This document shows positions 10,621-40,936 of a DNA stretch of 64,000 nt, piece after piece; position 1 is the first letter of the stretch, and every line of letters starts with the position of its first letter. A model generated the notes under the pieces. That model was not told the DNA's origin. It made no database searches and saw nothing but the letters and a program-made list of their open reading frames with translations. The stretch lies in assembly GCA_046735375.1 (NCBI GenBank), contig JBKPTD010000080.1, positions 36,816 through 100,815 of the forward strand, in the 5' to 3' direction. Both the position numbers and the translations under genes were made by a program. Source of the DNA: Actinomycetota bacterium (GTDB lineage Bacteria; Actinomycetota; Actinomycetes; JAKEEW01).

Positions 10621-10744
10621 GGTGATTTCGTACTTCCTGATCGGGAGATGCGGCACTGGGACGGCGGCGGGCAGGGTCGCTCCAGCCGCGCGAGGCGGCC
10701 AGCTTACCTGGACGGAGTCGCCGACCCGGAATCGCCAGGTGTGG

Positions 10745-12106
10745 CTACATGCTGGCGATGAGCTTCTCGACCCGGTCGTCGACGGCACGGAACGGGTCCT
10801 TGCACAGGACCGTGCGCTGCGCTTGATCGTTCAGCTTGAGGTGCACCCAATCGACGGTGAAGTCACGCCGGCGTTCCTGCGCACGACGGATGAACTCGCC
10901 ACGCAGCCGGGCCCGGGTGGTCTGTGGGGGGACGGACTTCGCCTCGAAAACGTCGAGATCACGGGCGACGCGTTCGGCAGCACCCCGCCGCTCGAGCAGG
11001 TAGTAGAGACCGCGGTGCCGGTTGATGTCGTGATAGGCAAGGTCGAGTTGCGCGATCCGCGGCGACGAGAGCGGGATCTGGTGCTTGGCGCGGTAACGCT
11101 CGATCAGCTTGTACTTGATGACCCAGTCGATCTCCTGGTCGACCGCGTCCAGGTCGCCTGATGAAACCGCGTCGAGGGTGCGCTCCCACAGGTCGAGCAC
11201 GTGCTTGACGATGCCGTCGTCCAGGCCGCGCTTGGCGGCGAAATCTCTCGCCTTACCGAGATACTCGCCCTGGATGTCGAGCGCGCTCGCGTCCCTGCCA
11301 TTGGCGAGCCGCACCCTGCGTCGCCCGGTCATGTCGTGGCTGACCTCCCGGATCGCGCGGATCGGGTTCTCCAGGGTGAGGTCGCGGAGAACGACGCCGG
11401 CCTCGACCATCCGGAGCACGAGATCGGTCGCGCCGACCTTCAGCAGGGTGGTCGTCTCGCTCATGTTCGAGTCGCCGACGATCACGTGGAGCCGCCGGTA
11501 GCGCTCCGCGTCCGCGTGCGGCTCGTCCCTTGTGTTGATGATCGGCCGGGATCGGGTCGTGGCCGAGGACACACCCTCCCAGATGTGCTCCGCCCGCTGG
11601 CTCACGCAGTAGACCGCCCCCCGAGGCGTTTGCAGCACCTTGCCCGCGCCGCAGATGAGCTGCCTGGTGACGAGGAACGGGATAAGGACATCGGCCAGCC
11701 GCGCGAACTCCCCGTGCCGTGCCACTAGGTAGTTTTCGTGGCAGCCGTAGGAGTTTCCCGCCGAGTCGGTGTTGTTCTTGAACAGGTAGACGTCGCCGGC
11801 GATGCCTTCCTCTCGGAGCCGCCGCTCCGCGTCGACAAGCAGGCCCTCGAGGATCCGCTCCCCGGCCTTGTCATGGACAACCAGATCGATCAGCGAGTCG
11901 CACTCTGGAGTCGCGTACTCGGGGTGGCTGCCCACGTCGAGGTAGAGCCTCGCGCCGTTCCGCAAGAAGACGTTGCTGCTGCGCCCCCATGAGACGACGC
12001 GCCGAAACAGATACCGCGCCACCTCATCGGGGGAAAGTCGGCGCTGGCCTCGGAACGTACACGTCACGCCATACTCGTTCTCCAGGCCGAAGATCCTTCT
12101 GTCCAT
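10745..12106 (-). CDS. pafA: Pup--protein ligase PafA
   Basis: [14 protein letters not shown]-terminus and a carboxylate-amine ligase fold. It is paralogous to the dop-like ORF at 24515 but is not adjacent to pup. The ATG at 12106 gives about 453 aa. Confidence 0.92.
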
Positions 12107-12361
12107 CCCTGGCCCACTCCCCGGCTCGGTCGCTCCGGACACTCCCGCTGCCTTCCGGCGCTCTTCCAACCTACGGCGCACTGGGCTCCTCGGCCATGGC
12201 GCGACTGGGCATCGATGTCCCTCGAACATTGAAGCCAAGCCCGCGTCGCGGGCGAGCGCTCGTGTTCCAGCCCGAAGATCCTTTGCTGGTGGGGAGAGTG
12301 AGCATCCTGGTGACACTGGAGACCCGGTCAGCTGGAGCCCGTCTTGAACGCCGCGCCCTCG

Positions 12362-12637
12362 TCAGCTGTCGTAGTGGTGGCGGCAGCCGATGATCGTCAC
12401 CGTCTCCTTGCCATCGGTATCAACACCGATCACATAGACGAGGCGATGCTCGTCGGTGATCCGACGCGACCACGCCCCGGCAAGGCTGTAGCGCAGTGGC
12501 TCCGGCTTGCCGACCCCAGTGAACGGGTCTCGAGTGATGTCATCGATCAGTCGATCGATCTTCTTCAGAATCGCACGATCGGTGTTCTGCCAGTAGAGGT
12601 AGTCTCGCCACCCGGTCGAAACGAATATGATCTTCAC
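12362..12637 (-). CDS. yoeB: YoeB/Txe-family mRNA interferase toxin
   Basis: Near full-length match to E. coli YoeB (GWRDYLYWQNTDRAILKKI..GKPEPL..WSRRITDEHRLVY..CRHHY). The catalytic Glu/Arg/His/Tyr positions are retained. Confidence 0.95.
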   Translation of the reverse strand: MKIIFVSTGWRDYLYWQNTDRAILKKIDRLIDDITRDPFTGVGKPEPLRYSLAGAWSRRITDEHRLVYVIGVDTDGKETVTIIGCRHHYDS

Positions 12638-12885
12638 GACCGATCGAGTTCGCGCTCGATCCCCTCTCCCCCACGCGCCTCGGCCAAGCCCGCGACCAGC
12701 CAGGCCGCGTTCGCCGGCGACCGCAGGAGGTATGCCGTCTCCTCGATCGAATCCCAATCTTCCTTCGAGACCAGCACCGCATTGCCGTGTTTCGAGACGA
12801 TCTCTACCGGCGTGTGGTCATCGTTGACCTGCTCGATCAATGGGAAGAGGCGCTTGCGCGCCTCGCTCGCGGTGATCGCCGTCAT
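12634..12885 (-). CDS. yefM: Phd/YefM-family antitoxin
   Basis: ITASEARKRL..SIEETAYLLRSPANA matches YefM. Its stop overlaps the toxin GTG by 4 nt (GTGA). Confidence 0.95.
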   Translation of the reverse strand: MTAITASEARKRLFPLIEQVNDDHTPVEIVSKHGNAVLVSKEDWDSIEETAYLLRSPANAAWLVAGLAEARGGEGIERELDRS

Positions 12886-12906
12886 CGTGTCCGTCCGTGC
12901 CAAGTC

Positions 12907-12922
12907 GTACCGAATATGGTAC
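12907..12922. promoter_or_regulatory. Putative YefM-YoeB operator (two GTAC cores 12 bp apart)
   Basis: GTACCGAATATGGTAC lies 22-37 nt upstream of the yefM ATG and has inverted 5-bp arms. The E. coli yefM-yoeB operator uses TGTACA cores with 12-bp centre spacing. Confidence 0.5.
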
Positions 12923-13130
12923 CATGTCCTCGCGACGGCAACAGCGTCCTCGCCGGATCTCCCCCGGCGAGGGACCGCAGGGTCGCGGGGACCGCACGGT
13001 ACGGGTCGGCTCGCCCGCGAGCACGACGGCCTTCCCATCGGACTTCTAGGAGCCCCGCCGGAGAACGTAGAGCCGGATCTCTCCAAGGCATGCAACTGGC
13101 CCCTGGCCACAACCCAGGGCGCCGCAAGGA

Positions 13131-13169
13131 GATGGCCTCGATCCCTTGGGGGAAAGGAGTCGAGGCCAT
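13131..13169. other. Orphan long hairpin / palindrome in a non-coding gap
   Basis: GATGGCCTCGA..(18 nt)..TCGAGGCCATC forms a perfect 11-bp stem. CCTT/AAGG pairing inside the loop can extend it. No T-tract follows on either strand. Confidence 0.5.
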
Positions 13170-13577
13170 CGTGTCTCACACGTTAGCGGACCGGCGGCGT
13201 TGCGGGGACTAATACCATTCACGCGGCTCGTGGGCCTCAGGCGGCAAGCCCGGGACCGGCCGCTGGAGCCCTCGCTGTCGCGACGGAATGAGCGCATCTG
13301 CAGTAGTCTCAGTCCGCCTCGTCCCCCAGATAGCAGGCCCCCGGCGGCCGATGCCGGCACGACCAGCCGTCCCCGGCCACGGTCGCGTGCGCGACCGTCC
13401 GGTAGTGGCCGGCTGATGTCAGGAGGCTAGGCGGGCAGCGCCGAGTGCGCATCGTCAGAACTGTGTAGACGGCTATGTATCCGGGCGCGGCCGGTGCCGC
13501 CATGGTGTCGGCGCTATGGTGGCTAGAAGTACCAGTAGCGGACTAAGACTGCTGAGGAACGAGAGGCGGAAGAGGTA

Positions 13578-16088
13578 ATAGAGATCCGCGCCGATTTACC
13601 TCAGGAACCGAACAGCTTCATCGGCCGGGAGCGGGAACTCGGCGAACTGCGCGAGCTGGTCGGCACCACCCGCGCGCTGACACTGTGCGGAACAGGCGGG
13701 ATCGGGAAGACGAGGCTGGCGCTGCGGCTCATTGGCGAGGTCGCGGATAGCTTTCCCGATGGCGCATGGTACGTCGAATTGGGCGATCTGCGGCAACCCG
13801 ATCTCGTCGTTTCCCGGGTGGCCTCGGTCATTGGCGTGAGCGAAGAACCCGCGCGCCCGCTGCTGGAGACTCTCGCGGACGCGCTGCGGCCGCGGCGGCT
13901 GCTGCTGGCCCTGGACAACTGTGAGCATCTGATCGACGCCTGCGCCCGGCTCTGCCAGCGCCTGGTGGCCAGCTCGCCCGGCTCCCGGCTGATAGCTACG
14001 AGCCGGGAGCCGCTGCGGGTGGCCGCCGAGACGGTCTGGCAGGTGCCGCCGCTGTCCTTCCCGCCCGCTGGCGCATCGGCCACCCTCGACGGCCCAAGCA
14101 GCTACGAGGCGGTCAGGCTGTTCGCCGAGCGGGCTGCTGCCTCCCTGCCCGGCTTCACCGTCGGCCCGGACAACGCCGCAGCCGTGATCGCGCTCTGCCG
14201 TGCGCTCGACGGCATCCCATTGGCGATCGAACTGGCAGCCGCCCGGGTGCGGGTGCTGTCGATTGAGCAGATCACGGCCCGGTTGGCTGATCGCTTCGGC
14301 CTGCTCACGACCGGGGGCCGGACGGGCCCACCCCGGCACCGCACCCTGCGCGCTGCCATCGACTGGAGCTACGGCCTGCTGACCCCCAGGGAGCAGGTGC
14401 TGCTGCGGCGCCTGTCGGTCTTCGCCGGCTGGTCGCTGGAGATGGCCGAGCATGTCTGCTCCGACCGCCAGATCCCGGCTCAGGACATGCTTGACCTGAT
14501 CGCCGCGCTGGTGGACAAGTCGCTGGTGACGGTTGAGCCGGAGGCGCTCGGCCAGGCTCGCTACCGGCTGCTCGACACCATCCGCGAATACGCTGCGGCG
14601 CAACTGGCTGACGCCGGCGAGGCCGCCGCCTTCCAGCGTCGGCTCCGCGACTACACGCTGGAGGTGGCGGAGCGCAACCACGCGATCGGGATGGCGCAGA
14701 TCCCGGCCCCCTGGCCGGTTCGGGTGGACGTCTTCCGCCGCTACGACACCGACCGGGAGAATGTGTGGCAGGTGCTGAGCTGGTGCCTGACGGACGCGGA
14801 TGCGGAGGCAGGGCTGCGGATCTGCACCGGGGTTCGGCCATGCTGGATCGTCCGGGGTGTCTTCGCCGAGGGCGGCGAATGGCTGGACTCCTTCCTGGCA
14901 CTCGATGCGCCGGGTGTGCCCGCCACGGTCCGCGGCGCCGCCTTGGTGGGACGTGCGCAGCTCGCCCTCTCCAGCGACCCGGCCGCGGCCGGGGCCTGGG
15001 CCGGGGAAGGGCTGGCCCTCGCCCGCGCCGCCGGCGACGGCTTCTGGACGGCCGCAGCGCTCAACCTGCTCAGCGAGATCGCACTGCACACGGGGCGGGC
15101 AGCCGACGCGGCCGCCCGCGCGGGCGAAGCCCTCGCCGTAGCGCAGGCGGGCGGCGACCGGTGGAACGAGGGATACGCACTCGGCATCCGCGCGGCGCTG
15201 GCGGCAGAGCAGGGCAGGCTGGCAGACGCGCAGGAGCTCGCGGAGGGCTCGCTCAGCATCATGCGCGGCATCGACCAGCAGTGGGGCGCCGCCCGTGCCC
15301 TGCTCGGCCTTGGTGACCTGGCCCGGCTCCGCGGCGAACCTGGCTACGCCCGTCCCCGTTACCTGGAGGCGCTGGCCATCCTGCGGGAGATAGATGCGCG
15401 GCCGGAAATCGCCCGGTGTCTCGCTGGACTCGGGCGGGTAGCCATGGACCTGGGCGCCATCGGGCAGGCAAGGGAGCACCTCGCCGAGAGCCTCCGGCTG
15501 AGCCATGCCACCGGTACCCGCATCGGTGTGGCCCGGGGCCTCGAGGCATTCGCCGCCCTGGCCGTTCAGGAAGGCCGGCCGGAGCTGGCGGTGCAGCTGG
15601 CCGCCGCCGCGAGCACGCTGCGGGAGACTGCTGGCCTGCCTGCGCTGCCCGGCGCGCGGGCGCAGAAATACCTGGCTGCTGCCCGCCACCTAGGCGGGGA
15701 GGCGGCCATCGCCCGGCTGTGGGCGCGCAGCCTGGCGATGAGCAGTGAGGCGGCGGTCGGACTGGCGCTGGACCCGCCACAGGCGACGGCTATGAGCAGC
15801 AGAGGCACCCTCCCCGGAGCCGCAGTCGGACCCACAGAACCGGCCGCCCTGCCCGGCGCGCTCACGCCACGGGAGCGCCAGGTCGCCGCCCTAGTCGCCA
15901 GCGGCCGCAGCAACAAGGCCATCGCCGAGGAGCTGTATATCAGCCCCGCCACGGCCGCCCGGCACGTCGCCAACATCCTCGCCAAGCTCGGATTCAGGTC
16001 GCGCACCCAGATCGCCGTCTGGGCGGCAGACCAGCAGTTCAACCGCACCAGCCAGCCCGCCAGTACCGGCCCGGCCAGGCTGGCCTAG
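13578..16088 (+). CDS. STAND (NB-ARC-like P-loop) - TPR - LuxR-HTH transcriptional regulator; start codon non-canonical or lost
   Basis: The frame is open from 13539. It has Walker A GTGGIGKT at 13689-13712, an NB-ARC-like core (LLLALDNCEHL), TPR-like repeats, and a C-terminal LuxR HTH (RERQVAALVASGRSNKAIAEELYISPATAARHV). The first ATG/GTG/TTG in frame is at 13779, downstream of the P-loop. An ATA at 13578 is preceded by purine-rich GGAAGAGG. Confidence 0.7.
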   Translation: MEIRADLPQEPNSFIGRERELGELRELVGTTRALTLCGTGGIGKTRLALRLIGEVADSFPDGAWYVELGDLRQPDLVVSRVASVIGVSEEPARPLLETLADALRPRRLLLALDNCEHLIDACARLCQRLVASSPGSRLIATSREPLRVAAETVWQVPPLSFPPAGASATLDGPSSYEAVRLFAERAAASLPGFTVGPDNAAAVIALCRALDGIPLAIELAAARVRVLSIEQITARLADRFGLLTTGGRTGPPRHRTLRAAIDWSYGLLTPREQVLLRRLSVFAGWSLEMAEHVCSDRQIPAQDMLDLIAALVDKSLVTVEPEALGQARYRLLDTIREYAAAQLADAGEAAAFQRRLRDYTLEVAERNHAIGMAQIPAPWPVRVDVFRRYDTDRENVWQVLSWCLTDADAEAGLRICTGVRPCWIVRGVFAEGGEWLDSFLALDAPGVPATVRGAALVGRAQLALSSDPAAAGAWAGEGLALARAAGDGFWTAAALNLLSEIALHTGRAADAAARAGEALAVAQAGGDRWNEGYALGIRAALAAEQGRLADAQELAEGSLSIMRGIDQQWGAARALLGLGDLARLRGEPGYARPRYLEALAILREIDARPEIARCLAGLGRVAMDLGAIGQAREHLAESLRLSHATGTRIGVARGLEAFAALAVQEGRPELAVQLAAAASTLRETAGLPALPGARAQKYLAAARHLGGEAAIARLWARSLAMSSEAAVGLALDPPQATAMSSRGTLPGAAVGPTEPAALPGALTPRERQVAALVASGRSNKAIAEELYISPATAARHVANILAKLGFRSRTQIAVWAADQQFNRTSQPASTGPARLA

Positions 16089-16363
16089 CGCCCAGCAGGC
16101 CAGCGGAAACACCGGCGAGCCGGAGGCGGGCACCTGCGCACGGGCGCGAAAATTGTGGGTTGATGGCCTGTGGGAGCACAGGAACTCGATTCGTGTTCCT
16201 GTCAGCCATGAACCGGACGCTGCCTTGGGCGGCGCCGGGGCGCACCTCGGTCGCGTCGACGACTGTCCGTTCGGCGTTCTCATGCGACTTCAGCGAAGGC
16301 CGAGGTCGGTCGCCAACACTCCCCGCATCCTGGTGCCTCCCGCTTCGGCCGGCGCACGCGCCG

Positions 16364-16700
16364 TCATGACCGGGAGCGCATGTCGGCGATCGTCTCGTGC
16401 AGCGCGGCGTCCAGCGGTGTCGGACTGATACCGAACGCCACCGTGGCGGCTGTGGAGTCCAGCACGAATGGCTTCCGGAACTAGTACCGGGTCTCCCGCG
16501 CCGCGCGTGCCATCGGGTTGAACAGCCCGCCAAGCCATAGCACCGGGTAGGGCATCGCGGACAGCCGCGGAGCCGGTACGCCGGCCAGCTCGGCGACCCG
16601 GGTCGCCACTTCGCGGAACGACTTCGGCGGCCCAGATCGAGGAACGTACGGCGCTGAGTAGCTGCATCGGGAGAGTCCGATCGGACAACTTCCGTGCCGG
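16364..16700 (-). pseudogene. 3' remnant of an NAD(P)-dependent epimerase/NmrA-like SDR gene
   Basis: The C-terminal-like sequence ..GPPKSFREVATRVAELAGV..LWLGGLFNPMARAARETRY is interrupted by an in-frame TAG (16481-16483). It then continues FRKPFVLDSTAATVAFGISPTPLDAALHETIADM to a TGA at 16364. Upstream the frame is lost and no Rossmann N-terminus is present. Confidence 0.6.
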
Positions 16701-16839
16701 AACGGCCATCGCGATCCGAATCGGAGCCACCGGTCTGTCCCCCGCGGGCTACCGCGCGGCCTACGGAGTAGGCAACGGCCCGACCAAGTGAGCGCCCTGC
16801 CCGGACATCGGCCGATCTCCGGCTCACGATCCGGTACCC

Positions 16840-17520
16840 CTATGGGTTGGACGCCTGCACCAGCGACAAGACGTGGCGCAGGCCGCGTTGCCCCGAAGGA
16901 GCTGACCGCGGCAGCAGGAGCACGCTGAGTCCGGCTGCCACCGCCCCGGCGTCGGTGAGTGGGCTGTCTCCCACCATGAGGGTGTTGGCGGGACCGACCC
17001 CCAGCCGATGGCAGGCGGTGAGGAACGCTGATGGATCGGGCTTGCAAACCCCGCACTCAAAGGACAGGACCACCGTGTCCAGGAAGGGGGTGAGCCCGAG
17101 CGCGTCGAACACCGGCCGCAGATCGAATCCAGTGTCGCTGACGATACCTATCCGCACGCCGAGGTCGCGCAGCGCCCTCAGTGTGGGCAGCGTGTCGGGG
17201 AAGACCTCCCACGACCGCACGTTGACCGTTTGGGCGTACAGCGCGTCGCTCAACCCGGGGGCCAGACGATCACATCCTGCCTCGACATAGAGCGCCGTCC
17301 ACACCTCGCGATGCCGTGCCGGGGACAGGTCACGGCCCTTGGCCAGCTCCGCTGGTGTGCTGGCTTGGGCCAGCACTCGCTGCCAGGCACGCGCCGCATC
17401 CTCCGTGTCGAGGCTGTCGTGGCGCAGTGTCGCGGCGGCGCGGTGCAACAGCTGCTCGCCCCCGCCGGAGAGCCGGATCAGCGTGTCGCCAGCGTCGAAA
17501 AGTACCGCCAGAAAGGTCAC
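16840..17520 (-). CDS. HAD-superfamily hydrolase (subfamily IA-like)
   Basis: Motif I is LFDAGDTLI. VSDTG and KPDP motifs are present, and MVGDSPLTDAG matches motif IV. There is a 4-nt overlap with the upstream GT4 gene. Confidence 0.85.
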   Translation of the reverse strand: MTFLAVLFDAGDTLIRLSGGGEQLLHRAAATLRHDSLDTEDAARAWQRVLAQASTPAELAKGRDLSPARHREVWTALYVEAGCDRLAPGLSDALYAQTVNVRSWEVFPDTLPTLRALRDLGVRIGIVSDTGFDLRPVFDALGLTPFLDTVVLSFECGVCKPDPSAFLTACHRLGVGPANTLMVGDSPLTDAGAVAAGLSVLLLPRSAPSGQRGLRHVLSLVQASNP

Positions 17521-18605
17521 GCTGTCGCCTCTCGCACGATCACGCGCAACTCGGCGAAGAGCTGCTTCGCTGTCTCCTGCCAGGTGGGAAACGTGGCGGC
17601 ACGCCGGCGAGCCGCCCCCGCGAGTCGACGGCGCAACGGCTCATCCTCTGCCAGCGACCCGAGCGCGGCGGTGAGCGCTGCACGGTCACCCCGTGCTATC
17701 ACGCGCCCTTCGACGCCATCGCGGGCCAGGTAGGGCAGGTTACCGGTGTCCCATCCCACGACGGGCAGCCCAGCCGCCATCGCCTCGCCGTAGACCGTGC
17801 CGTACGGCTCCCGCACGCTGGTCAGGGCGAACACGTCCGCCGCCTGATAGAACCCGGCCACCTCGTTGACGGACCGTGGTCCGTGTACGACCACCCGGCC
17901 GACGAGATCCGGAGCCGTAATCCGGGCTCGCACGCGCGCGGCATAGCCGGGATCGGTCTGCGTATCCCCCACAAGATGCAGCGTGACCGAATCTGGCGGC
18001 AGCGCTGCGACCGCATCAAGCAGATCGAGCAGCCCCTTGCGCGCCACCCAGTTTCCCACGGCCAAGACGGCTGCCTTCCGCCCGGCTCGGAGGTCAGCGA
18101 GCGGCAGGACGATGTTTGAGGCGACGTCCCTTCCCGGCGGGATGACCCGGAGCAGCTCCTCGGGAACGCCACAAGCGCCCATCTCCTCCGCGAGTGAGGC
18201 GCTGGCAACGAGCAGCCGGGCGGCCTGACGGTGGACACGGCGATCAAGGACTGCCTGCACGCGGGTACGGGCCGGACCATGGTCGATGCCGCCCGGGGGC
18301 TGGTGCACCATCCCCACCAGCGGGACGGGCGACCTACGGCGCGCACGCCACGGCCCGACGAAGGCGGCGGCGATGCTGTCCAGAAGCAGGACATCGGGCC
18401 GGCGCCGGGCCACCGCCCGGAGCACGGCGGGACCGGCCAGCGTGGGAAGCGGGAAAGGCCAGGCCGGAAAGGAGACGAATTCCACTCGGGCACCACACGC
18501 CGGCGCCAGCGCAGCAATCCGCCGGTGATACAGATAGCCGCCGGTCATCGTCTGTGGGTTGCCCAACGTTACGAGGGAAACGTTGAGGACGTGCGAGTCA
18601 TCCAT
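17517..18605 (-). CDS. GT4-family (GT-B fold) glycosyltransferase
   Basis: EX7E-type motif (REPYGTVYGEAMAAGLPVV). The N-terminal strand LNVSLVTLGNP..GGY supports the ATG at 18605 as the start. The ORF track begins at 18806. Confidence 0.85.
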   Translation of the reverse strand: MDDSHVLNVSLVTLGNPQTMTGGYLYHRRIAALAPACGARVEFVSFPAWPFPLPTLAGPAVLRAVARRRPDVLLLDSIAAAFVGPWRARRRSPVPLVGMVHQPPGGIDHGPARTRVQAVLDRRVHRQAARLLVASASLAEEMGACGVPEELLRVIPPGRDVASNIVLPLADLRAGRKAAVLAVGNWVARKGLLDLLDAVAALPPDSVTLHLVGDTQTDPGYAARVRARITAPDLVGRVVVHGPRSVNEVAGFYQAADVFALTSVREPYGTVYGEAMAAGLPVVGWDTGNLPYLARDGVEGRVIARGDRAALTAALGSLAEDEPLRRRLAGAARRRAATFPTWQETAKQLFAELRVIVREATA

Positions 18606-19697
18606 GTCGTCCCGACGCCGTTTGGTACCAGCGGGCTGTTCGGAGGTGGAGAACGTTACCCGCTCGAGCTTGCCCGAGCCCTGGCGCGGTACGTGGACTG
18701 CATGCTGGTGACGTTCGGACCTTCGCCCCGGACCTGGCGGGAGCCGAACGGGCTGCGGATCCGGATGCTTCGCCGGTTGGGCCATGTCCGAGGACACCCG
18801 GTGCATCCGGTAGCACCGCAGCTGGCCTGGTCATTGGGCCACGCCGACCTCGTACATACTCATCACCTGCGGAGTGCGCCGAGCCGGATGGCGATGCTGA
18901 CAGCCGCGCTGACCGGGCAACACCGCGTAACCACCGATCACGGGCTTGGCGGGGGTGGGTGGGGTGGGCTCCTGCCCAGCCTGGTTGAGCGTTTCCTCAC
19001 CGTCTCGAGGTACTCCGCCCAGGTCCTCCACGCACCGCCAGCCCGGACCCGGGTCATCTACGGCGGCGCGGATCCGACGCGCTTCGTGCCCGAGCCGGAT
19101 GGGCAGCGCGACGGCGTTCTCTACCTCGGCCGGATCACGCCGCACAAGGGGATCGACCATCTGCTGCGAGCCCTGCCGCCGGGGGTACCGCTGCTTATCG
19201 CTGGCACGACCGGCCACAACCGTCGCCTGCCCGAACGTGACTATCCACAGCTGCTGCGACGGCTAGCCGCCGGATGCGACGTACGTTTCCTCGGCGCCGT
19301 CCCGGAGGCTGACGTGGCGGCGCTGTACCGTCGGGCGGCAGTGTTCGCACTGCCGACCGTCGAGCGAACCTGCTATGGAGCGCGAGTGCCGGTCACCGAG
19401 CTCCTGGGGCTCTCCGTGTTGGAGGCCATGGCGAGCGGTACGCCCGTGGTGGCAAGCCGAACGGGTGGACTGCCGGAGATCATCAGGGACGGCGAAACGG
19501 GGTTCCTCGTCACTCCTGGTGACGAGGACGAGCTCCGGGACCGCCTGCGCCAGCTGCTGGAAGACTCGGTGGTGGCTCGACGGATGGGTCAGGCCGCTCG
19601 CGCCCTCGTCATGGAGCGGTTTACCTGGACGAGGACGGCGGAACGTTGCCTTGCCGTCTATTCCGAGCTCGCTGGGTCGGGCAGCGCGGCGGCATAA
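18591..19697 (+). CDS. GT4-family (GT-B fold) glycosyltransferase
   Basis: VRVIHVVPTPFG..GGGERY N-terminus, GRITPHKGIDHLL, and LSVLEAMASGTPVVASRTGGLPEII. The start is taken as the GTG at 18591. Confidence 0.85.
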   Translation: MRVIHVVPTPFGTSGLFGGGERYPLELARALARYVDCMLVTFGPSPRTWREPNGLRIRMLRRLGHVRGHPVHPVAPQLAWSLGHADLVHTHHLRSAPSRMAMLTAALTGQHRVTTDHGLGGGGWGGLLPSLVERFLTVSRYSAQVLHAPPARTRVIYGGADPTRFVPEPDGQRDGVLYLGRITPHKGIDHLLRALPPGVPLLIAGTTGHNRRLPERDYPQLLRRLAAGCDVRFLGAVPEADVAALYRRAAVFALPTVERTCYGARVPVTELLGLSVLEAMASGTPVVASRTGGLPEIIRDGETGFLVTPGDEDELRDRLRQLLEDSVVARRMGQAARALVMERFTWTRTAERCLAVYSELAGSGSAAA

Positions 19698-20059
19698 CCG
19701 CCGAAGGCGACCGGGGACTCCCACACGCGCACGGCCAGGGTAAGGCCTGGCAACGGCCCTAGCAGTCGCGTCAGCCGGTCGTGGACCCACCGCGCGAAAA
19801 CCTCGACCGTCACAGCTTGCGCGCCCGTCTCCCGCGCAACGACCTGGTCGAGATCCCCGCCGTCGATGGAGTCGGCAATCTCCCGCAACCCGCCGTCGAG
19901 CGCATCGAGGTCAACGACCATGCCACGCTCGTCGAGGCCATCGCGGCGGGCCACGACATCCAGTCGGTAGTCGTGGGCGTGCCGCTCGCCTTCAGGTGGC
20001 GGCATATCGGGCATCACGTGAAATGCCCGCACCTCAATGGCCGTTCCTGTCTCATACAT
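19658..20059 (-). CDS. 6-pyruvoyl-tetrahydropterin synthase / QueD-like protein (COG0720-type)
   Basis: FH..PEGERHAHDYRLDV aligns with QueD [17 protein letters not shown]. The three zinc-binding His are retained, but the segment carrying the catalytic Cys is absent. Confidence 0.75.
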   Translation of the reverse strand: MYETGTAIEVRAFHVMPDMPPPEGERHAHDYRLDVVARRDGLDERGMVVDLDALDGGLREIADSIDGGDLDQVVARETGAQAVTVEVFARWVHDRLTRLLGPLPGLTLAVRVWESPVAFGGYAAALPDPASSE

Positions 20060-20067
20060 ATGGTCAC

Positions 20068-21066
20068 CTATTCATAACGCAGCGCAGCGTGGAGCAACCC
20101 CGGTTCGCCGCGGTCGACGGCCGCATAGGCGGCGGCCGCATCAGCGATCGGGAACTCGCTCGTGGCCAGGACATGCAGCGGCAGTTCCGCGAGCAGCCTG
20201 CGCGCGGTCGCCCTCCGGCGTCCTACGTCCCAGCGGCTGCCGAGCGCCGCGGGGATCGAGGACACCTGGCTGCTGCGGATCGTCAGGCGGCGGCGGTGGA
20301 ACTCTGCGCCCAGCGGCAGCGAGACCCGCTTGGTGCCGTACCAGGAGCCGACCAGCGCGGTCCCTTCATGCGCGAGCAGCGCCAGCCCCTCCTCCAGCGC
20401 CGCCGGGGCGCCGGACAGCTCCACCAGGATTGGCGTCCCGTGCCCGGCAGTCGCTTCGGCCACCACCCCGGGCAGGTGCTCGGGCGAGACGGCGGTGATG
20501 CCCAGCGCGTCCGCGATCTCCCGCCGCCACTCTTGGGGCTCCGCGGCGAGCACCAGAGCGCCGGTGTGGCGCAGTAACAGGGCGGTGAGCAGCCCGACCG
20601 CGCCGAGCCCAGTAACGACCACTGTCTCGTCAAGCACAGGGCCAGCATCGAGGGTCAGCTGGAGGGCGGTCTCTACCAGCGGGAACAGTGTCGCCAGTCG
20701 TGGGTCGGTGTGGGCACCGAGCATCACCGCGTCCCGGTCAGCGACGACAAACCGGTCCTGGTGTGGGTGGAAGGCGAACACCAGGGAACCAGCCGGGACC
20801 GTCGCCGTACCCTCCTCGACCCAGCCAACGCAGCTGTAGCCGTACTGAAACGGGTATTCGAAGGTGCCCGACAACCCAAGCAGGCTCTCGTCGAGGCTGG
20901 TGTCCGCGGCCAGCTCACCACGGTAGGCCAGCATCTCGGTGCCGGCGCTAAGGCCGGAGTACACGCTCCGCACCATCAGCTCGGTGGATGACGTGCGCTC
21001 TGGAAGATCGACCGACACGAGGTCGATCCGGCGAGGAGCGGTGAACTGCACGGCACGCGCGCGCAC
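20068..21066 (-). CDS. Zinc-type medium-chain alcohol dehydrogenase/reductase family protein
   Basis: MDR-fold N-terminus (VRARAVQFTAPRRIDLVSVDLPE) and Rossmann motif VVVTGLGAVGLL. AAGGAG lies 5 nt upstream of the GTG at 21066. The ORF track begins at 21123. Confidence 0.82.
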   Translation of the reverse strand: MRARAVQFTAPRRIDLVSVDLPERTSSTELMVRSVYSGLSAGTEMLAYRGELAADTSLDESLLGLSGTFEYPFQYGYSCVGWVEEGTATVPAGSLVFAFHPHQDRFVVADRDAVMLGAHTDPRLATLFPLVETALQLTLDAGPVLDETVVVTGLGAVGLLTALLLRHTGALVLAAEPQEWRREIADALGITAVSPEHLPGVVAEATAGHGTPILVELSGAPAALEEGLALLAHEGTALVGSWYGTKRVSLPLGAEFHRRRLTIRSSQVSSIPAALGSRWDVGRRRATARRLLAELPLHVLATSEFPIADAAAAYAAVDRGEPGLLHAALRYE

Positions 21067-21121
21067 GTCACTCCTTACCCGCCGTGTTTCCGTGGCGGCC
21101 ACGGTGTGGTAACCCAGGGCC

Positions 21122-21949
21122 ATGGTGCTTCCATCTGGCTATGGCGAGCCTACGCGGGCACCCGTCGAGGTCGGGTCCGTCCTGATCGCCACGGCGTACG
21201 GGGAGTTCCGCACCCGCGTGTTCGAGGCGGCCACCGTCTTGCTCGGTGATATTCGCCCGCGCGACGAGCGGCCGTACGTGCTGGTGAAGTACGCCCAAAC
21301 GATCGACGGTCGGATCGCGACCCGAACCGGTGACTCGAAATGGATCAGTGGGGAGACCGAGCGGCGAATCTCGCACGCCCTGCGGGCCGCCTGCGACGCG
21401 GTGCTCGTAGGCTCGGGCACAGTTCGGCAAGACGACCCGGAGCTCACCGTGCGGCTCGTCCCGGGCGCCAACCCGATTCGCGTCGTTCTCGACTCGACGC
21501 TCAGCATGGTGCCAACCGCCAAAGTGGCCGGCGACATTGCAACCACGGTGGTGTTCACCACATCCGCAGCTGATCCCACGCGGAAGGAACAGTTGCAGGC
21601 GGCCGGAGTCACGGTCCATGAGGTGACGCCCGGGCAGGAAGGTGTGGACCTGGCAGCCGTCCTCGCCCACCTGCGTCGGTCGGGCGTGAAGTCGCTCATG
21701 GTGGAGGGCGGCCGCCGCGTCATCACCTCGCTCCTCGCCGCCGGGCAGGTGGACCGACTGGTCGTGTCGATCTCCCCGACCGTCATCGGCACAGGGGTCG
21801 AGGCCGTGGGAGACCTGGGAATCGGCCTAGTCGCCGAAGGCGTACGGCTCACCAACCGCGCAGTTTGCCTCGCCGATGACGATGTGCTCCTGGGCTGGGA
21901 CGTCGAGCCGCGGACTCAATCGTCCGCCCCGCCTGATCGAGAACCATGA
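21122..21949 (+). CDS. RibD C-terminal-domain (DHFR-fold) pyrimidine/pterin reductase with an N-terminal GTP-cyclohydrolase-II-like fragment
   Basis: RPYVLVKYAQTIDGRIATRTGDSKWISG and LMVEGGRRV are RibD_C hallmarks. Residues about 10-45 (VLIATAYGEFRTRVFE..LLGDI) resemble the first strands of RibA. Confidence 0.75.
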   Translation: MVLPSGYGEPTRAPVEVGSVLIATAYGEFRTRVFEAATVLLGDIRPRDERPYVLVKYAQTIDGRIATRTGDSKWISGETERRISHALRAACDAVLVGSGTVRQDDPELTVRLVPGANPIRVVLDSTLSMVPTAKVAGDIATTVVFTTSAADPTRKEQLQAAGVTVHEVTPGQEGVDLAAVLAHLRRSGVKSLMVEGGRRVITSLLAAGQVDRLVVSISPTVIGTGVEAVGDLGIGLVAEGVRLTNRAVCLADDDVLLGWDVEPRTQSSAPPDREP

Positions 21950-22021
21950 CGTCCACCGCCACCCGCGGCGAACGGAGTGCACGAACCAGCGCGTCGGCGC
22001 CGTCCTGGACCACTTGGTCCT

Positions 22022-22150
22022 TTAGGTTGCGCGCACCGGCTGCCGCAGGATCGTTCGCATCTTGGCCGGATCGGTCTCCCGGACATTGGACAGGTAGAGC
22101 TCATGGTGCCGACCGTTGGCTACCAGCCCGCGCACATGCATAAAGCGATC
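22022..22150 (-). pseudogene. C-terminal remnant of a GyrI-like (effector-binding) domain gene
   Basis: The short open frame ..FMHVRGLVANGRHHELYLSNVRETDPAKMRTILRQPVRAT* resembles the end of GyrI-like domains (..HEIYLSDP....RTE/IL..PV). The frame is closed by a TGA at 22190-22192, so no full domain is present. Confidence 0.4.
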
Positions 22151-22368
22151 GATTCGGGGCACTCGCCGGCGCCCCCGGCTGGTCTGAGGTCAGGCGTATG
22201 AACAGACGAACAGGGCCAACGCCCATCTGACGAGTCGATTAGAGCTACTTCGCCCGGTCTTGTTCCTCCGTTAGCCGTGTTCCTCTGTTCGCTCACGTCG
22301 GGTGGCACAGGAATCGTGCTGACCGAGGAACGGATGCGAAGCGTCGAGCGGATCGGAAGGGAGGAGCG

Positions 22369-23088
22369 CTACCCCTGTGGCTGCTGCGCAGGCGTCATGA
22401 TCTGCTCGAGTGCCGGGCCGACGAGTCGCCGGAACTTCCGCAGTGGCCGGGTCCGGTCGAGGACAGCCACCTCGAGCTGATTCGCCTCGAGCTGTCGCTG
22501 CGGGCTTCCCGGCTGCCCGCCGTGGGTGCTGAGGACGTCGACGGCCAGCCGCAGCATGTCACCGAGCGGCTGCCCATCGGAATAGTGCTCCTCGAGAGCA
22601 GTGGAGATCTGCTCGGCCTGGCCTCCCATAGCGACGAAGCCGTGCTCGTCAGACACTGAGCCGTCGTAGGTGAGCCGGTAGATCTGATCGCTTTCTGCCT
22701 CGTCGCCGACCTCGGCGACGACAATCTCGACCTCGAAGGGTTTACTGCTCTCGGTAAAGATGGTGCCGAGGGTCTGTGCGTATGCATTGGCCAGCCCCCT
22801 GCCCGTCACGTCCCGCCGGTCGTAGAGGTAGCCGCGAGTGTCGGCCAGCCTGATGCCTGCCTGCCTGAGATTCTCGAACTCGTTGTATTTGCCGACCGCG
22901 GCGAAGGCGATCCGGTCATAGATCTCGCTGATCTTGTGCAGCGCGCGGGAGAGGTTCTCGGCGACGAAGAGGACCCCGTCAACGTACTGGAGGACGACAA
23001 CGCTGCGGCCCCGCGCAATGCCCTTGCGCGCATACTCCGCCTTGTCCTTCATCACCTGTTCTTGCGGGACGTAGAACGGCGTCGTCAT
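22369..23088 (-). CDS. prcA: 20S proteasome alpha subunit
   Basis: [29 protein letters not shown] matches the actinobacterial PrcA N-terminus. It lies directly downstream of prcB. Confidence 0.95.
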
Positions 23089-23125
23089 CGAGTGTCCCCC
23101 TCAGCTGGGCTCGAGTGAGTGTGCA

Positions 23126-23962
23126 TCACCGCAGGGGCGCCTGTGGCCCGTTCGGGTGGGCCATCCGGCCGGCTATGACAGCGTCCACGATGGCTCCGAC
23201 CTCGTCATCGGGCATCCGGCGGAAGCCGGCTGCCGTCACCGCCGACACGACCGGGTAGATTCGCCGGCTCAGGTCCGGTCCCCCGGTGGCGGAGTCGTCG
23301 TCGGCCGCGTCGTAAAGCGCCTGCACGCAGGCGGTCACCGCATCGACTTCCTGCAAGTCATCGCGGAACAGTTTCTTGAGTGCGCCACGGGCGAAGGGTG
23401 AGCCTGATCCCACCGAGTGGAAGGCGTGCTCCTCGTAGCGGCCGCCGGTGATGTCGTAGCTGAAGATCCGGCCCTCGCCGGTCTCCAGGTCGTAGCCGGC
23501 GAACAGGGGCACCACCGCGAGACCTTGTATGGCCATGGCGAGGTTGCCGCGAATCATCATGGCGAGCCGGTTGGCCTTGCCGTCCAGTGAGAGGACGGTG
23601 CCCTCGATCTTCTCGTAGTGTTCGAGCTCAACCTGGAACAGGCGAACCAACTCCACCGCGACCCCGGCGGCTCCGGCAATGCCGACGCAGGAGTATTCGT
23701 CAGCTGGATAGACCTTTTCGATGTCGCGTTGGGCAATGACATTGCCCATGGTTGCCCGCCGGTCACCCGCCATGACAACACCGCCCGGGAAGGTGACAGC
23801 CACGATGGTGGTGCCGTGCGGCGCTTCGATCTGCTCGCTCGGCGGGGTGCGGCGTCCTGGTAGCAGGTCAGGGGCGTAGGAGCCCAAGAAGTCCGAGAAC
23901 GACGGCGTTCCCGGTGTCATGAACGCCGCCGGCAGCCGCCCCGCGCCATCCGCACTCGTCAC
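23126..23962 (-). CDS. prcB: 20S proteasome beta subunit (with propeptide)
   Basis: A propeptide is followed by the HG|TTIVAV processing site, which supplies the catalytic Thr1. Confidence 0.95.
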
Positions 23963-24122
23963 GCCGCACCCTCCAGATAAGCCGCTCTCAGGCCTGTCGG
24001 CACCTGCCGAAGCCCGCCGGCGGTCTCCTCATCCGTGAACCAAAAGAACGCCTCGAACCTTACCCGTCTCGTGATCGTGATCCTGCCCCGCGCGGTCGCC
24101 AGGTCTGCGGTGACTCCGCGGG

Positions 24123-24335
24123 CTACTCGCCGCCCTTTTGGACGAATCCGCGGACGAACTCCTCAGCATTCTCCTCAAGCACCTCGTCTATCTCGTCCAG
24201 AATCGAGTCGACGTCGTCTGAGATCTTTTCTTGCCGTTCCTTGACGTCGGCAGCAGCCTCGGCCTCAGCCTCGTCGACCTCGTCGGACCGCTGGGTCGCG
24301 CGCTTCTGCCCGCCGGTGTCTTTGGTGGCCATCAC
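24123..24335 (-). CDS. pup: Prokaryotic ubiquitin-like protein Pup (C-terminal GGE form)
   Basis: Acidic protein of about 70 aa ending ..FVRGFVQKGGE. It sits between dop and prcB. Confidence 0.95.
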   Translation of the reverse strand: MMATKDTGGQKRATQRSDEVDEAEAEAAADVKERQEKISDDVDSILDEIDEVLEENAEEFVRGFVQKGGE

Positions 24336-24514
24336 CAGCCTCCTCTAGGTCCGAGGGGTCGTCCCCTGTCCGGATATCCGGATGCCTCGACCCTACAAGG
24401 CAGACCGGACATCTTGCCTGTGATCATTACCCGCCGACCCCAGCCACGACACGGCGGGGTGAGGTGAATCGCCACGTCATGCCATGGGGAGTGGGCCGGA
24501 GTCTGCGCCGGTCC

Positions 24515-26026
24515 TCAGCCGCCGGTCAGTGCGGTGACAAGCTCGGTGGCGGTCTTGCACCGATTAAGCAGGTCGCCCACGTGTGCCTTGGTCCCTCGCA
24601 GCGGCTCCATCGTAGGGACACGTTGCAGCGAGTCGTACCCCGGCAGATCAAAGATCACTGAATCCCAGGAGGCAGCGGCGACCTCGTCGGCGTAGCGCGC
24701 AAGACAGTTGCCCCGGAAGTAGGCACGGGTGTCCTCCGGAGGTTCGTGGACGGCCTTGTCCACCCGCGGCGGATCGATGAGCCGCTGTATCCGGTCGCGG
24801 TCGGCCAGCCGGTTGTACAGCCCTTTGTCGCTGCGTACGTCGGCGTATTGCAGGTCGACGAGGTGCAGCCGCGGTGCGTCCCAGTCCAGGCCGTCCCGGC
24901 TGCGATAGCCCTCCAGGATGGACAGCTTCGCTACCCAGTCCAGCTCCGCGGACAGGCTCATGGGGTCGTGCTCGAGTCGGGTCAGCACGGATTCCCATCG
25001 GTCGAGGACATCGGCCGTCACGTCGTCGACGTCCGTCCCGAATCGGTCCTCTACGTACTTGCGCGCCTGCTCGAGATATTCCATCTGGAGCTGCACGGCG
25101 GTGAGCTTGCGGCCCGAGCGCAGGGGCACAACCGCCTGCAGGGTCGGATCGTGGGACACCGCATGCAGGGCACGGACCGGGTTCTCGACCGAGAGGTCGA
25201 TCGAGATGAAGCGCTCCTCGATCATCGCGAGAACCAGCGCAGTCGTGCCCAGCTTGAGGTAGGTCGAGATCTCCGACAAGTTGGCATCGCCGATGATCAC
25301 GTGCAGGCGGCGATATTTCTCCGCGTCGGCGTGGGGCTCGTCGCGGGTATTGATGATCGGCCGCTTGAGCGTGGTCTCCAGCCCGACCTCGACCTCGAAG
25401 AAGTCGGCACGCTGGCTGATTTGGAAACCGTGCTCCCGGCCGTCCTGGCCCAGTCCGACCCGCCCAGCGCCGGCTATCACCTGCCGGCAGACGAAGAACG
25501 GCGTCAGGTTGCGCACGATGTCGGCGAATGGCGTTGCCCTCGCCATCAGGTAGTTCTCGTGGCACCCGTAAGAAGCGCCCTTGTTGTCGGTGTTGTTCTT
25601 GTAAAGCTGGATCGGCTGGGCACCGGGGATGGAAGCGGCATGGTAGGCCGCGATCTCCATGATCCGCTCACCGGCCTTGTCCCAGATGACCGCGTCTCGC
25701 GGATTGGTGCATTCCGGAGTCGAATACTCCGGATGCGCATGGTCGACATAGAGCCGGGCACCATTGGTCAGAATCACGTTTGCCAGGCCGACGTCCTCGT
25801 CGGTGAGCTGACTGGCGTCGGCGAGCTCCCTGGCAAGGTCGAAGCCCCGCGCGTCACGCAGCGGATTCTCTTCCTCGAAATCCCAGCGCGCACGCCGAGT
25901 CCGCGCGGTCACTGCCGCGTAGGCATTCACCACCTGGGATGAGGTGAGCATGGCATTTGCCGACGGGTGGCCGGGTACGGCGATGCCGTACTCGGTCTCG
26001 GTCCCCATCACCCGCCATACAGTCAT
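24515..26026 (-). CDS. dop: Pup deamidase/depupylase Dop
   Basis: [11 protein letters not shown]-terminus and paralogy to pafA. It is immediately upstream of pup. The start is taken at [10 protein letters not shown]. Confidence 0.9.
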
Positions 26027-40279: not shown

Positions 40280-40936
40280 TCAGCTACCGACGACGAAGGC
40301 CTCGAGGCTTGCCGCACTGACCTGGGCCAGTGACTGGACGACTTGCAACCTTCCCGCGGGCTGGATGGTCGCGGCGTGCGGGACAGCCACCACTCGGCAG
40401 CCCGCCGCCAGGCCAGCGGCCACTCCGTTCGGTGAGTCCTCGAGGACAACGCAGCGGTTGGCGTCGGCGCCGAGCGCCACGATCGCCTTCAGATAGGGCT
40501 CGGGATCGGGCTTGTTCCGCGAGACGTCGTCACCGGAAATCGTCACGGCAAAATGACTGGCGCCGACCCGGGCGAGCACGGCGTCCACCATCTGGCGTAC
40601 CGATGCCGACACCAGGCCGCAGGGCACACCCGCCGCGTGGAGGTCGTCGAGAAGGTCAAGCGCGCCCGGGAGGATGATGACCTGCTCGCGAACCCGGCGC
40701 ACGATGCCCTCGTCCATCCATCGGCCCACCTGCGCCGGATCGGCGTCCGCCCCGGACCGCTGGATCATGTAACGCGCCGCCGCAGCGGAGGGACTTCCAA
40801 GCACGGCGATCTGGTCGGCCGGCGTCCACTCCCCACCCAGCTTCGCCATAACTTCGAGCTCAACGTCGAACCACAGAGGCTCGGTGTCGACGAGGAGTCC
40901 GTCCATGTCGAAGAGGACGGCCTGGAGCTGCGGCAT
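40280..40936 (-). CDS. HAD-superfamily hydrolase (beta-phosphoglucomutase/phosphatase-like)
   Basis: Motif I is VLFDMDGLLVDTE. VSAS, KPDPEPY and LEDSPNG motifs are also present. Confidence 0.88.
   Translation of the reverse strand: MPQLQAVLFDMDGLLVDTEPLWFDVELEVMAKLGGEWTPADQIAVLGSPSAAAARYMIQRSGADADPAQVGRWMDEGIVRRVREQVIILPGALDLLDDLHAAGVPCGLVSASVRQMVDAVLARVGASHFAVTISGDDVSRNKPDPEPYLKAIVALGADANRCVVLEDSPNGVAAGLAAGCRVVAVPHAATIQPAGRLQVVQSLAQVSAASLEAFVVGS

Follow-up and report, generated by a model that had tools for sequence, protein, structure and literature searches.

Proteins of the PTPS/QueD family (COG0720) share the T-fold and are sorted into subfamilies by short motifs, which are CxxxHGH in PTPS-I, CxxxxxHGH in PTPS-II and ExxHGH in PTPS-III (PMC5041015), with FGPAQ as the signature of PTPS-IV (PMC5445326). 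Zallot et al. cite unpublished work for a role of PTPS-IV in archaeal F420 synthesis and describe the function of PTPS-V as unclear (PMC5041015), and the AGeNNT paper reports that PTPS-IV sequence clusters neighbour genes of the PF00925 and PF01872 families (PMC5445326). Within the Actinomycetota, prior art also includes the SCO6650-SCO6655 gene cluster of Streptomyces. Here we analyse a compact six-gene cluster in a stretch of 64,000 nucleotides (nt) from an Actinomycetota bacterium (contig JBKPTD010000080.1 of assembly GCA_046735375.1, positions 36,816 to 100,815), hereafter the window. An earlier note, made from the sequence alone, had proposed that this cluster directs an uncharacterised pathway to a di-glycosylated reduced pterin or a related metabolite derived from guanosine triphosphate (GTP).

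Sequence comparison places the window cluster as a second type within a larger, very common Actinomycetota cluster family, for which there is some structural work and no assigned product. We propose that the module turns GTP into a glycosylated, dephosphorylated 2-amino-4-oxopyrimidine derivative, which would be either a ribitylaminopyrimidine or a pterin-like product made from it, and we judge this proposal to stand about evenly between right and wrong.

A conserved module and its Streptomyces counterpart

Domains were called with Pfam and NCBIfam on the open reading frames (ORFs) of the window, and gene starts were refined by alignment to orthologues. Pfam confirmed all six ORFs that had been placed in the cluster, each with its assigned domain, as follows.

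16840..17520, minus strand: HAD-IA hydrolase (REG-2/CTE7-like), presumed phosphatase; Pfam Hydrolase 1.3e-19, HAD_2
17517..18605, minus strand (maximal ORF 17517-18806): GT4a, GT-B glycosyltransferase of family 4 (GT4), 362 amino acids (aa); Glycos_transf_1 1.5e-25, Glyco_transf_4
18591..19697, plus strand (maximal ORF 18231-19697): GT4b, 368 aa; Glycos_transf_1 2.6e-33
19658..20059, minus strand: PTPS/QueD-fold (T-fold) protein, 133 aa; Pfam PTPS 1.2e-15
20068..21066, minus strand (maximal ORF 20068-21123): MDR-superfamily NAD(P) dehydrogenase, 332 aa; ADH_zinc_N 1.5e-13
21122..21949, plus strand: internally deleted fusion gene of GTP cyclohydrolase II (GCH II) and RibD_C; RibD_C 6.8e-50

The scan for relatives of the PTPS-like protein covered one genome per species and returned at least 62 loci, 43 of which had enough flanking sequence for counts. 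The module has a common order, in which the GCH II-RibD_C gene reads in one direction and the MDR and PTPS-like genes read in the other, followed by GT4b where present (in the direction of the fusion gene), GT4a and, in some loci, a phosphatase gene. The MDR gene is present in all 43 well-flanked loci, and it adjoins the PTPS-like gene in 62 of the 62 listed loci, often with an overlap. An adjacent GCH II (37/43) and a RibD_C domain (35/43) are nearly as frequent, so that a neighbourhood of the PTPS-IV type, with PF00925 and PF01872 genes nearby, accompanies this T-fold protein. GT4a occurs in 36/43 loci in the same orientation as the PTPS-like gene, GT4b in 27/43, both glycosyltransferases together in 27/43, and a phosphatase of any of three types in at least 17/43. 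The module is carried by at least 62 species-level genomes, drawn from no fewer than three classes, namely the Actinomycetes (Geodermatophilaceae, Micromonosporaceae, Cryptosporangium, Jiangellaceae, Nocardioidaceae, Streptosporangiaceae and Actinocrinis), the Acidimicrobiia and the Thermoleophilia (Solirubrobacterales). This arrangement is far beyond chance, and we conclude that it is a real conserved module. Co-occurrence of the six-gene set in other genomes was a check named beforehand, and the same order in at least 62 species-level genomes bears it out.

The genes are tightly packed. Both spacings reported earlier, the 4-nt overlap of the HAD and GT4a genes and the 8-nt gap between the MDR and PTPS-like genes, are correct. 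Orthologue alignment sets the start of GT4a at the ATG at 18605, that of GT4b at a GTG at 18591 with a GAGGA motif upstream, and that of the MDR gene at a GTG at 21066 with an AAGGAG motif upstream. The 5' ends of GT4a and GT4b consequently overlap by 15 nt (18591-18605), the 3' end of GT4b overlaps the 3' end of the PTPS-like gene by 40 nt, and the divergent MDR and RibD_C genes have 55 nt between their starts (21066-21122). Such near-zero intergenic space in both divergent pairs suggests that promoters lie inside coding sequence or that transcripts are leaderless; promoter and terminator scans of the region returned nothing informative.

The SCO6650 sequence was taken from the PDB alignment and used to fetch 80 Streptomyces loci of more than 551 matches, 30 of which were tabulated. 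In these 30 loci a CDP-alcohol phosphatidyltransferase gene (CDP-OH_P_transf) reads in one direction and is followed, in the other direction, by MDR, PTPS-IV and GT4 genes, about 1.5 kb of sequence, LPG_synthase_TM and GCH II. The SCO6650-SCO6655 cluster therefore has the same core order of MDR, PTPS-fold and GT4 genes as the window, together with a GCH II gene (SCO6655, a GCH II paralogue). The MDR proteins of the two clusters are 36-38% identical and have all family motifs in common, the Streptomyces GT4 is 30-35% identical to GT4a, and hhalign aligns the two T-fold families with a probability of 95%, SCO6650 (3d7j) being the best structural match. The clusters also differ. SCO6650-type proteins carry FGPAQ and two of the three zinc histidines, whereas the window family carries PEGExHxHDY and all three. 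Met replaces the catalytic Tyr of GCH II in 77/77 Streptomyces loci, in contrast to Tyr in 57/57 module loci, and the Streptomyces loci have neither a RibD_C domain nor a phosphatase gene. Met at that position reportedly causes SCO6655 to stop at the formylated product (Spoonamore and Bandarian are said to have described this in 2008). The stretch of about 1.5 kb between the Streptomyces GT4 and LPG_synthase_TM genes (10595-12300 in locus L074, others alike) contains no ORF with a Pfam match and may hide a further cluster gene.

The statement that no characterised pathway has this gene set holds for the literature searched, in that a full-text search, which did not include the Phillips 2012 COG0720 paper or the SCO6650 structure paper, found no characterisation of it. 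Prior art does exist, namely the SCO6650-SCO6655 cluster and the remark on PTPS-IV neighbourhoods (PMC5445326).

Enzymes proposed to act on a GTP-derived ring

The reductase gene of the window encodes a RibD_C domain that matches PF01872 at 170 bits (cut-off 24) and TIGR00227, a generic model of the C-terminal domain, at 184 bits (cut-off 150); this was the only NCBIfam model it passed, and none of the six proteins reaches a characterised equivalog. The N-terminus had been called GCH-II-like, and its GCH II origin stands, although it is merely a stump of 38-39 aa left from a deleted domain, the orthologues being fusions of 450-455 aa. Orthologues from a close relative (L042, 455 aa) and a more distant one (L003, 450 aa) align with the window protein from end to end except for a 184-aa gap in the latter, and both match GTP_cyclohydro2 (PF00925; 1e-57 and 4e-55, respectively) and then RibD_C. 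At the nucleotide level, blastn revealed a clean in-frame deletion of 552 nt in the window, with its junction at 21236 and a GGTC microhomology, which joins the N-terminal 38-39 aa of GCH II in frame to an intact RibD_C domain. The GCH II zinc motif and catalytic Tyr fall within the deleted 184 aa, and the window thus lacks a complete PF00925 domain. These features are complete in the L042, L003 and L063 orthologues, and the zinc motif HSECLTGD...CDCG and the catalytic Tyr (NKFRAY) are present in 57/57 module loci. The orthologue GCH II domain scores 180-193 bits against solved RibA and RibBA proteins. The proposed origin of the pathway in GTP is accordingly upheld by orthologues that carry the full GCH II domain.

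The reductase part is closest to 6p8c, a 2,5-diamino-6-ribosylamino-pyrimidinone 5'-phosphate reductase (141 bits); bacterial RibD follows at 107 bits and the archaeal enzyme 2azn of M. jannaschii at 101 bits. Against the archaeal reductase equivalog TIGR01508 it scores 148 bits, below the cut-off of 186. The best match to 6p8c, together with the lack of a deaminase domain, suggests the archaeal/fungal order of steps. The module resembles the RibA and ArfC/Rib7 enzymes of early riboflavin and F420 synthesis in the GCH II domain of the orthologues and in a reductase domain that passes TIGR00227 and has a solved 2,5-diaminopyrimidine-type enzyme as its closest match; it differs from them in that the two domains are fused, no deaminase is present, and the neighbours are T-fold, MDR and GT4 genes rather than ribH, ribE or ribB.

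This resemblance allows a different function, in which the module would be an alternative supply of 5-amino-6-ribitylaminouracil for riboflavin or F420 in the archaeal order, with the T-fold protein as the missing deaminase, the HAD protein as the phosphatase, and the GT4s unrelated. HAD phosphatases perform the dephosphorylation step in riboflavin synthesis, which counts in favour of such a supply, as does the likeness of the reductase to archaeal/fungal-type enzymes. The archaeal pyrimidine deaminase is still a prediction (PMC5397151), and PTPS-IV is said to take part in archaeal F420 synthesis in the unpublished work cited in PMC5041015. Against these points, GT4a follows the PTPS-like gene in 36/43 loci and is as conserved as GCH II, the recurrent neighbours include no ribH, ribE, ribB or fbiC, and the MDR dehydrogenase would have no role. 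Furthermore, a search of 12000-24600 found no riboswitch or other RNA element at E<=1, and hence no flavin mononucleotide (FMN) riboswitch. We consider a riboflavin or F420 supply very unlikely.

Comparison with related loci also indicates how the window came to lack the GCH II domain. Locus L003 matches the window at about 75% nucleotide identity and is collinear with it across the six genes, all of which are intact there; this indicates that the six-gene form with the full fusion came first. A deletion of about 790 nt in the closest relatives (L001, L042 and L063, 86-92% protein identity), corresponding to window positions 18853-19644 and associated with a CGT microhomology, takes most of GT4b. 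Sister lineages have thus each lost a different part of the cluster, GCH II in the window and GT4b in its closest relatives. L001 (DASYQX010000097.1) is a 3.3-kb contig with 92% protein identity to the window cluster that is filed under a Gemmatimonadales metagenome-assembled genome, which is probably a binning error. The GCH II deletion of the window may itself be an assembly artefact.

The window copy could be a decaying remnant that no longer makes a product, which would be compatible with any functional model of the intact copies. The domain of the dedicated first enzyme is deleted, the closest relatives independently lost most of GT4b, and the flanks are in flux, in that relatives carry a toxin-antitoxin pair, the window has a LuxR gene, and a fragment of the pafA 5' end has been duplicated. 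Yet the deletion is in frame and leaves the RibD_C domain intact, the other five genes are full length, and all six window genes remain under purifying selection, with ratios of nonsynonymous to synonymous substitution (dN/dS) of 0.10-0.24 against L063 and L003. In addition, the product of GCH II is a normal riboflavin intermediate and 6/43 loci have no adjacent GCH II, which suggests that the pathway may still run on the housekeeping riboflavin RibA, presumably as it does in those six loci. In the window, where the deletion removes the first step, the pathway would then either draw its intermediate from RibA or be heading to loss. We regard decay of the window copy as a possibility to be taken seriously, albeit a doubtful one.

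The PTPS-like protein forms a distinct subfamily with the motif AFHVMP...PEGExHxHDY...VRVWESPVAFGGY. Family-invariant residues include H14, H27 and H29, which correspond to the zinc ligands of PTPS/QueD and are predicted to bind metal, and E114, which corresponds to the Glu that anchors the 2-amino-4-oxopyrimidine ring. Glu occupies the position of the QueD catalytic Cys27, and the Asp-His dyad is absent, with IDG or VDG instead of LDH at its site. The AlphaFold2 (AF2) model of the protein has a mean confidence (pLDDT) of 88.9, and its top Foldseek match is 3d7j (SCO6650; TM score 0.79, root-mean-square deviation 2.5 Å), with QueD next at about 0.69. By its motifs and its predicted structure, the protein is a member of the T-fold/PTPS superfamily, as its fold, three histidines and anchoring Glu indicate.

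Assignment to a described subfamily is a separate matter. A bona fide QueD or PTPS-I is rejected, in that CxxxHGH is absent (the window has PEGERHAHD) and TIGR03367 gives 36 bits against a cut-off of 89. Likewise, no queC, queE or folE gene lies within 5 kb of the PTPS-like gene or among the recurrent neighbours in the at least 62 loci; the genes in that 5-kb span encode the HAD protein, the two GT4s, MDR, RibD_C, LuxR, PrcA and PrcB. Motif, score and context therefore all speak against a QueD linked to queC and queE, an outcome that would have undercut the original proposal. PTPS-II is excluded by the lack of CxxxxxHGH, of any Cys and of the Cys-Asp-His triad. PTPS-III is excluded because the Glu residues stand at -4 and -2 (E-G-E-R-H-A-H) and not at -3, as ExxHGH would have it. 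By sequence PTPS-IV does not fit either, since the stretch aligned with FGPAQ reads PPPEGE. The window protein accordingly shares the T-fold, the three-His zinc site and the anchoring Glu with PTPS/QueD subfamilies I-IV, and it differs from them in having none of their motifs and Glu in place of Cys.

The dehydrogenase had been described as a zinc alcohol dehydrogenase, which is incorrect, since the protein belongs to the MDR family and has neither the catalytic nor the structural zinc ligands. Its family motifs (SG[IL]SxGTE, YGYS, FHPHQD, VETAL and FHRRRL) contain no Cys, His or Glu zinc ligands; SGLSAGTE stands in place of the Cys motif, YGYS in place of GHE, and the four-Cys loop is missing, a pattern conserved in 59 family members. 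Pfam detected no ADH_N domain in the protein, and it did detect the Rossmann cofactor domain (PF00107, 51 bits, cut-off 31.8) with the motif GLGAVG. The nearest model is TIGR01202 (bchC) at 65 bits, below its cut-off, and we describe the protein as BchC/threonine-dehydrogenase-like.

These two proteins bear most directly on whether the product is a true pterin. The earlier note had the PTPS-like enzyme act on dihydroneopterin triphosphate, a claim that finds no support here, as that substrate requires GTP cyclohydrolase I, an enzyme that the cluster does not encode, and the catalytic Cys and Asp-His dyad are absent. A pterin could nevertheless arise by another route. Reduction by RibD_C and then oxidation by the MDR enzyme at C2' of the ribityl chain would together stand in for the Amadori step of GTP cyclohydrolase I, the ring would close to give a dihydroneopterin-phosphate-like substrate for the PTPS-like enzyme, and a di-glycosylated reduced pterin would follow. 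Such a route is favoured by retention of the PTPS fold, the three zinc histidines and the ring-anchoring Glu, by the invariable operon order of the MDR and PTPS-like genes, and by the substitution of Glu for Cys, which matches the catalytic residue of Plasmodium PTPS (the titles of PDB 3lze and 3m0n name mutants of E37, the 'catalytic residue'). A paper on Chlamydia folate synthesis is said to offer a precedent for making a pterin out of what GCH II produces. On the other side, the cluster has no GTP cyclohydrolase I and no Asp-His dyad, reduction followed by re-oxidation is roundabout, the Streptomyces sister cluster has no RibD_C, and matches to tetrahydrobiopterin glucosyltransferase (34-41 bits) fall below those to MshA, PimB' and sucrose-phosphate synthase. 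We find a pterin pathway of this form unlikely. Of the di-glycosylated reduced pterin first proposed, a GTP-derived glycoside remains reasonable; because GCH II with an archaeal/fungal-type reductase yields a ribitylaminopyrimidine phosphate as the starting point, the pterin part is unproven. A pterin product is possible, and no sequence feature requires it.

Predicted glycosylation, dephosphorylation and product

GT4a and GT4b both pass the Glyco_transf_4 (N-terminal) and Glycos_transf_1 (C-terminal) Pfam models and are therefore GT-B enzymes. They are divergent from each other, and GT4a is the one most often kept directly downstream of the PTPS-like gene. Among solved structures, their best relatives are MshA and sucrose-phosphate synthase (at the top for both), PimA and PimB', the last of which scores 69 bits against GT4b. 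Neither protein reaches an equivalog cut-off, with 66-88 bits against the MshA equivalog (cut-off 462), which agrees with the earlier expectation that they are not characterised envelope enzymes. A match to PF20706, which would have pointed to a defence-system GT4, is overlapped by far stronger generic GT4 models and was set aside. The tetrahydrobiopterin glucosyltransferases 5zer and 9v0l score 34-41 bits against GT4b and rank below about 20 other GT4 structures, and GT4a has no tetrahydrobiopterin glucosyltransferase match at 1e-5. In cyanobacteria, a PTPS gene is said in the earlier note to lie beside a pteridine glycosyltransferase, a system whose product is a glycosylated heterocycle made from GTP. 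That cyanobacterial pteridine glucoside system differs from the window, in that it starts from GTP cyclohydrolase I, uses a Cys-type PTPS, and has a glycosyltransferase that the window GT4s barely match.

The 4-nt overlap couples GT4a translationally to a phosphatase-type gene, which recalls the two-step glycoside syntheses by a GT4 and a phosphatase (MshA/MshA2 and sucrose-phosphate synthase/phosphatase), although the window GT4s score far below the equivalog cut-offs of those enzymes. The HAD protein has its best NCBIfam matches to TIGR02253 and TIGR02252, both below cut-off. Its motif I is FDAGDTL (D-x-x-D-T, not DxD), L063 and L064 have Gly in place of its second Asp, equivalents of motifs II-IV can be read in the sequence, and its dN/dS is 0.18-0.24. 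Across loci, the slot at the 3' end of the module is filled by the HAD type of the window, by a second HAD type in Solirubrobacterales, or by His_Phos_1 (13-14 loci), and these are mutually unrelated. Three non-homologous phosphatases in one slot suggest that dephosphorylation belongs to the pathway, and this is the best evidence for that step. Elsewhere in the window, a His_Phos_1-like gene (55283-55897, minus strand) is 33% identical to the module-associated phosphatase of locus L038, and a weak HAD paralogue lies at 40316-40675 (minus strand); neither shows any sign of serving the cluster.

Based on these assignments, the glycosylated, dephosphorylated pyrimidine derivative that we favour would be made in five steps. 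First, GCH II would open GTP to 2,5-diamino-6-ribosylamino-4(3H)-pyrimidinone 5'-phosphate, as domain and residue identity in the orthologues indicate. Second, the fused RibD_C domain would, judged by family membership, reduce the ribosyl to a ribityl group in the archaeal/fungal order and with no deaminase. Third, the zinc-less MDR protein and the zinc-site T-fold protein may alter the side chain by oxidation, elimination or cleavage, or may close a ring. Fourth, GT4a, joined by GT4b where it is present, would glycosylate an intermediate that is still phosphorylated, by analogy with MshA and sucrose-phosphate synthase; that the best solved relatives of both GT4s include these enzymes, which act on phosphorylated acceptors, lends support to this step. 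Fifth, the phosphatase would take off the phosphate, as the three interchangeable types suggest.

Several observations weigh against this proposal. The window copy has no GCH II domain, and an adjacent GCH II is missing from 6/43 well-flanked loci. No member of the cluster family has an assigned product, and the reactions proposed for the MDR and T-fold proteins are a guess. The likeness of the GT4s to MshA and sucrose-phosphate synthase lies mostly in the generic nucleotide-sugar domain, and HAD motif I is atypical (D-x-x-D/G-T), so that the phosphatase role would rest mainly on the non-orthologous replacements. Moreover, a CDP-alcohol phosphatidyltransferase and LPG_synthase_TM accompany the module in nine of the listed loci, representing at least three lineages, and are also part of the Streptomyces sister cluster, which hints that the end product is membrane-bound rather than a soluble glycoside. 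One of the nine, L033, has a stand-alone GCH II, GT87 and methyltransferases.

These additions are the starting point for another explanation, in which the module would make the head group of a membrane glycophospholipid resembling the phosphatidylinositol-mannosides (PIMs). A GTP-derived alcohol phosphate would be joined to CDP-diacylglycerol by the CDP-alcohol phosphatidyltransferase, and dephosphorylation, glycosylation by GT4s and flipping by LPG_synthase_TM would follow. CDP-OH_P_transf and LPG_synthase_TM stand beside the module in 9/62 listed loci and in 30/30 tabulated Streptomyces loci, the variant locus L033 also has GT87 and methyltransferases, and GT4b counts PimB' (69 bits) and PimA among its solved relatives. 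The combination of a phosphotransferase, a phosphatase and two GT4s parallels the PIM pathway, which also counts in favour of a lipid. However, neither a CDP-alcohol transferase nor LPG_synthase_TM lies within 10 kb in the window or in most module loci, and no such lipid was found described in the literature searched. A phospholipid head group as the product of the module seems improbable to us.

Placement in the Pup-proteasome locus and wider meaning

The cluster stands among genes of the Pup-proteasome system, and the features around it are as follows.

10745-12316 as ORF, with the true start at about 12106: pafA, flank
13779..16088, plus strand: LuxR-family regulator, 769 aa (GerE helix-turn-helix and TPR); GerE 2.4e-17, TPR_12
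22369-23088: prcA, flank, followed on the same side by prcB and dop

As had been reported, pafA and prcA flank the region, yet pafA does not adjoin the cluster, being separated from it by a 280-aa ORF and the LuxR/TPR regulator. The ORF, at 12344-13186 on the plus strand beside pafA, has no Pfam match. The regulator finds only short matches at the level of its helix-turn-helix in other loci and is not kept with the module. Its GC content (72-74%) is the highest in the region, the six cluster genes have 68-70%, and the pup-proteasome genes have 64-67%. The regulator was probably acquired separately, and its membership of the cluster is doubtful. Between the LuxR and HAD genes (16089-16839) lie about 750 nt that contain only Arg-rich ORFs with no Pfam match.

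The position between pafA and prcA, previously left unexplained, now reads as a placement specific to this lineage, within an interval whose content varies among actinobacteria and, in M. tuberculosis, comprises about a dozen unrelated genes. Among the listed loci, the module stands beside prcA solely in the window's own lineage (L042 and L063-L067), which suggests placement in a variable spot with no functional tie to pupylation, and we reject a functional link on this ground. In that lineage, a PhdYeFM/PIN toxin-antitoxin pair lies between prcA and the module (6702-7438 in L063), and EamA and GntR genes follow the HAD gene. Close relatives also carry pup on the side of prcA, prcB and dop. 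Where relatives hold the toxin-antitoxin pair, the window has a spacer of about 370 nt (21950-22368) with no convincing ORF and a terminator-like hairpin at 22007-22020.

Signatures of mobile elements were not found, in that the window has no tRNA genes and no convincing flanking repeats, and a tblastx comparison of 12.1-16.9 kb with the other loci returned nothing beyond the compositional noise of high-GC DNA. At 12259-12283, 185 nt upstream of the true pafA start and in a different frame, the window has a 25-nt near-copy (22/25) of the first pafA codons (12074-12098; RIFGLENE and RIFGLEHE). Directly after the HAD gene of L063, at about 12526-12675, a stretch of 150 nt matches the pafA 5' end and its upstream region. 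These near-copies in the window and L063 look like scars of rearrangement at the boundary of the island.

The place of the cluster in the Pup-proteasome locus carries no functional message. GTP feeds the synthesis of folate, biopterin, molybdopterin, riboflavin, F420 and 7-deazapurines, and a further branch in soil Actinomycetota would lengthen this short list. SCO6650 and SCO6655, for which there is a crystal structure and no known role, are now linked to a cluster type with a true GCH II-reductase fusion, a zinc-site T-fold protein and an interchangeable phosphatase. This link supplies cultivable carriers (Geodermatophilus ruber and Cryptosporangium) and concrete substrates, which makes the roles of these proteins directly testable. 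In its broadest and rather speculative form, which we think is probably too generous, the comparison would mean that an undescribed metabolite derived from GTP is made by Actinomycetota, hundreds of Streptomyces species among them. The product of GCH II would be remodelled by the MDR and T-fold pair and then glycosylated, and the fuller clusters would attach it to a phospholipid through the CDP-alcohol transferase, so that the outcome would be a glycolipid head group or cofactor of a new, nucleobase-derived class.

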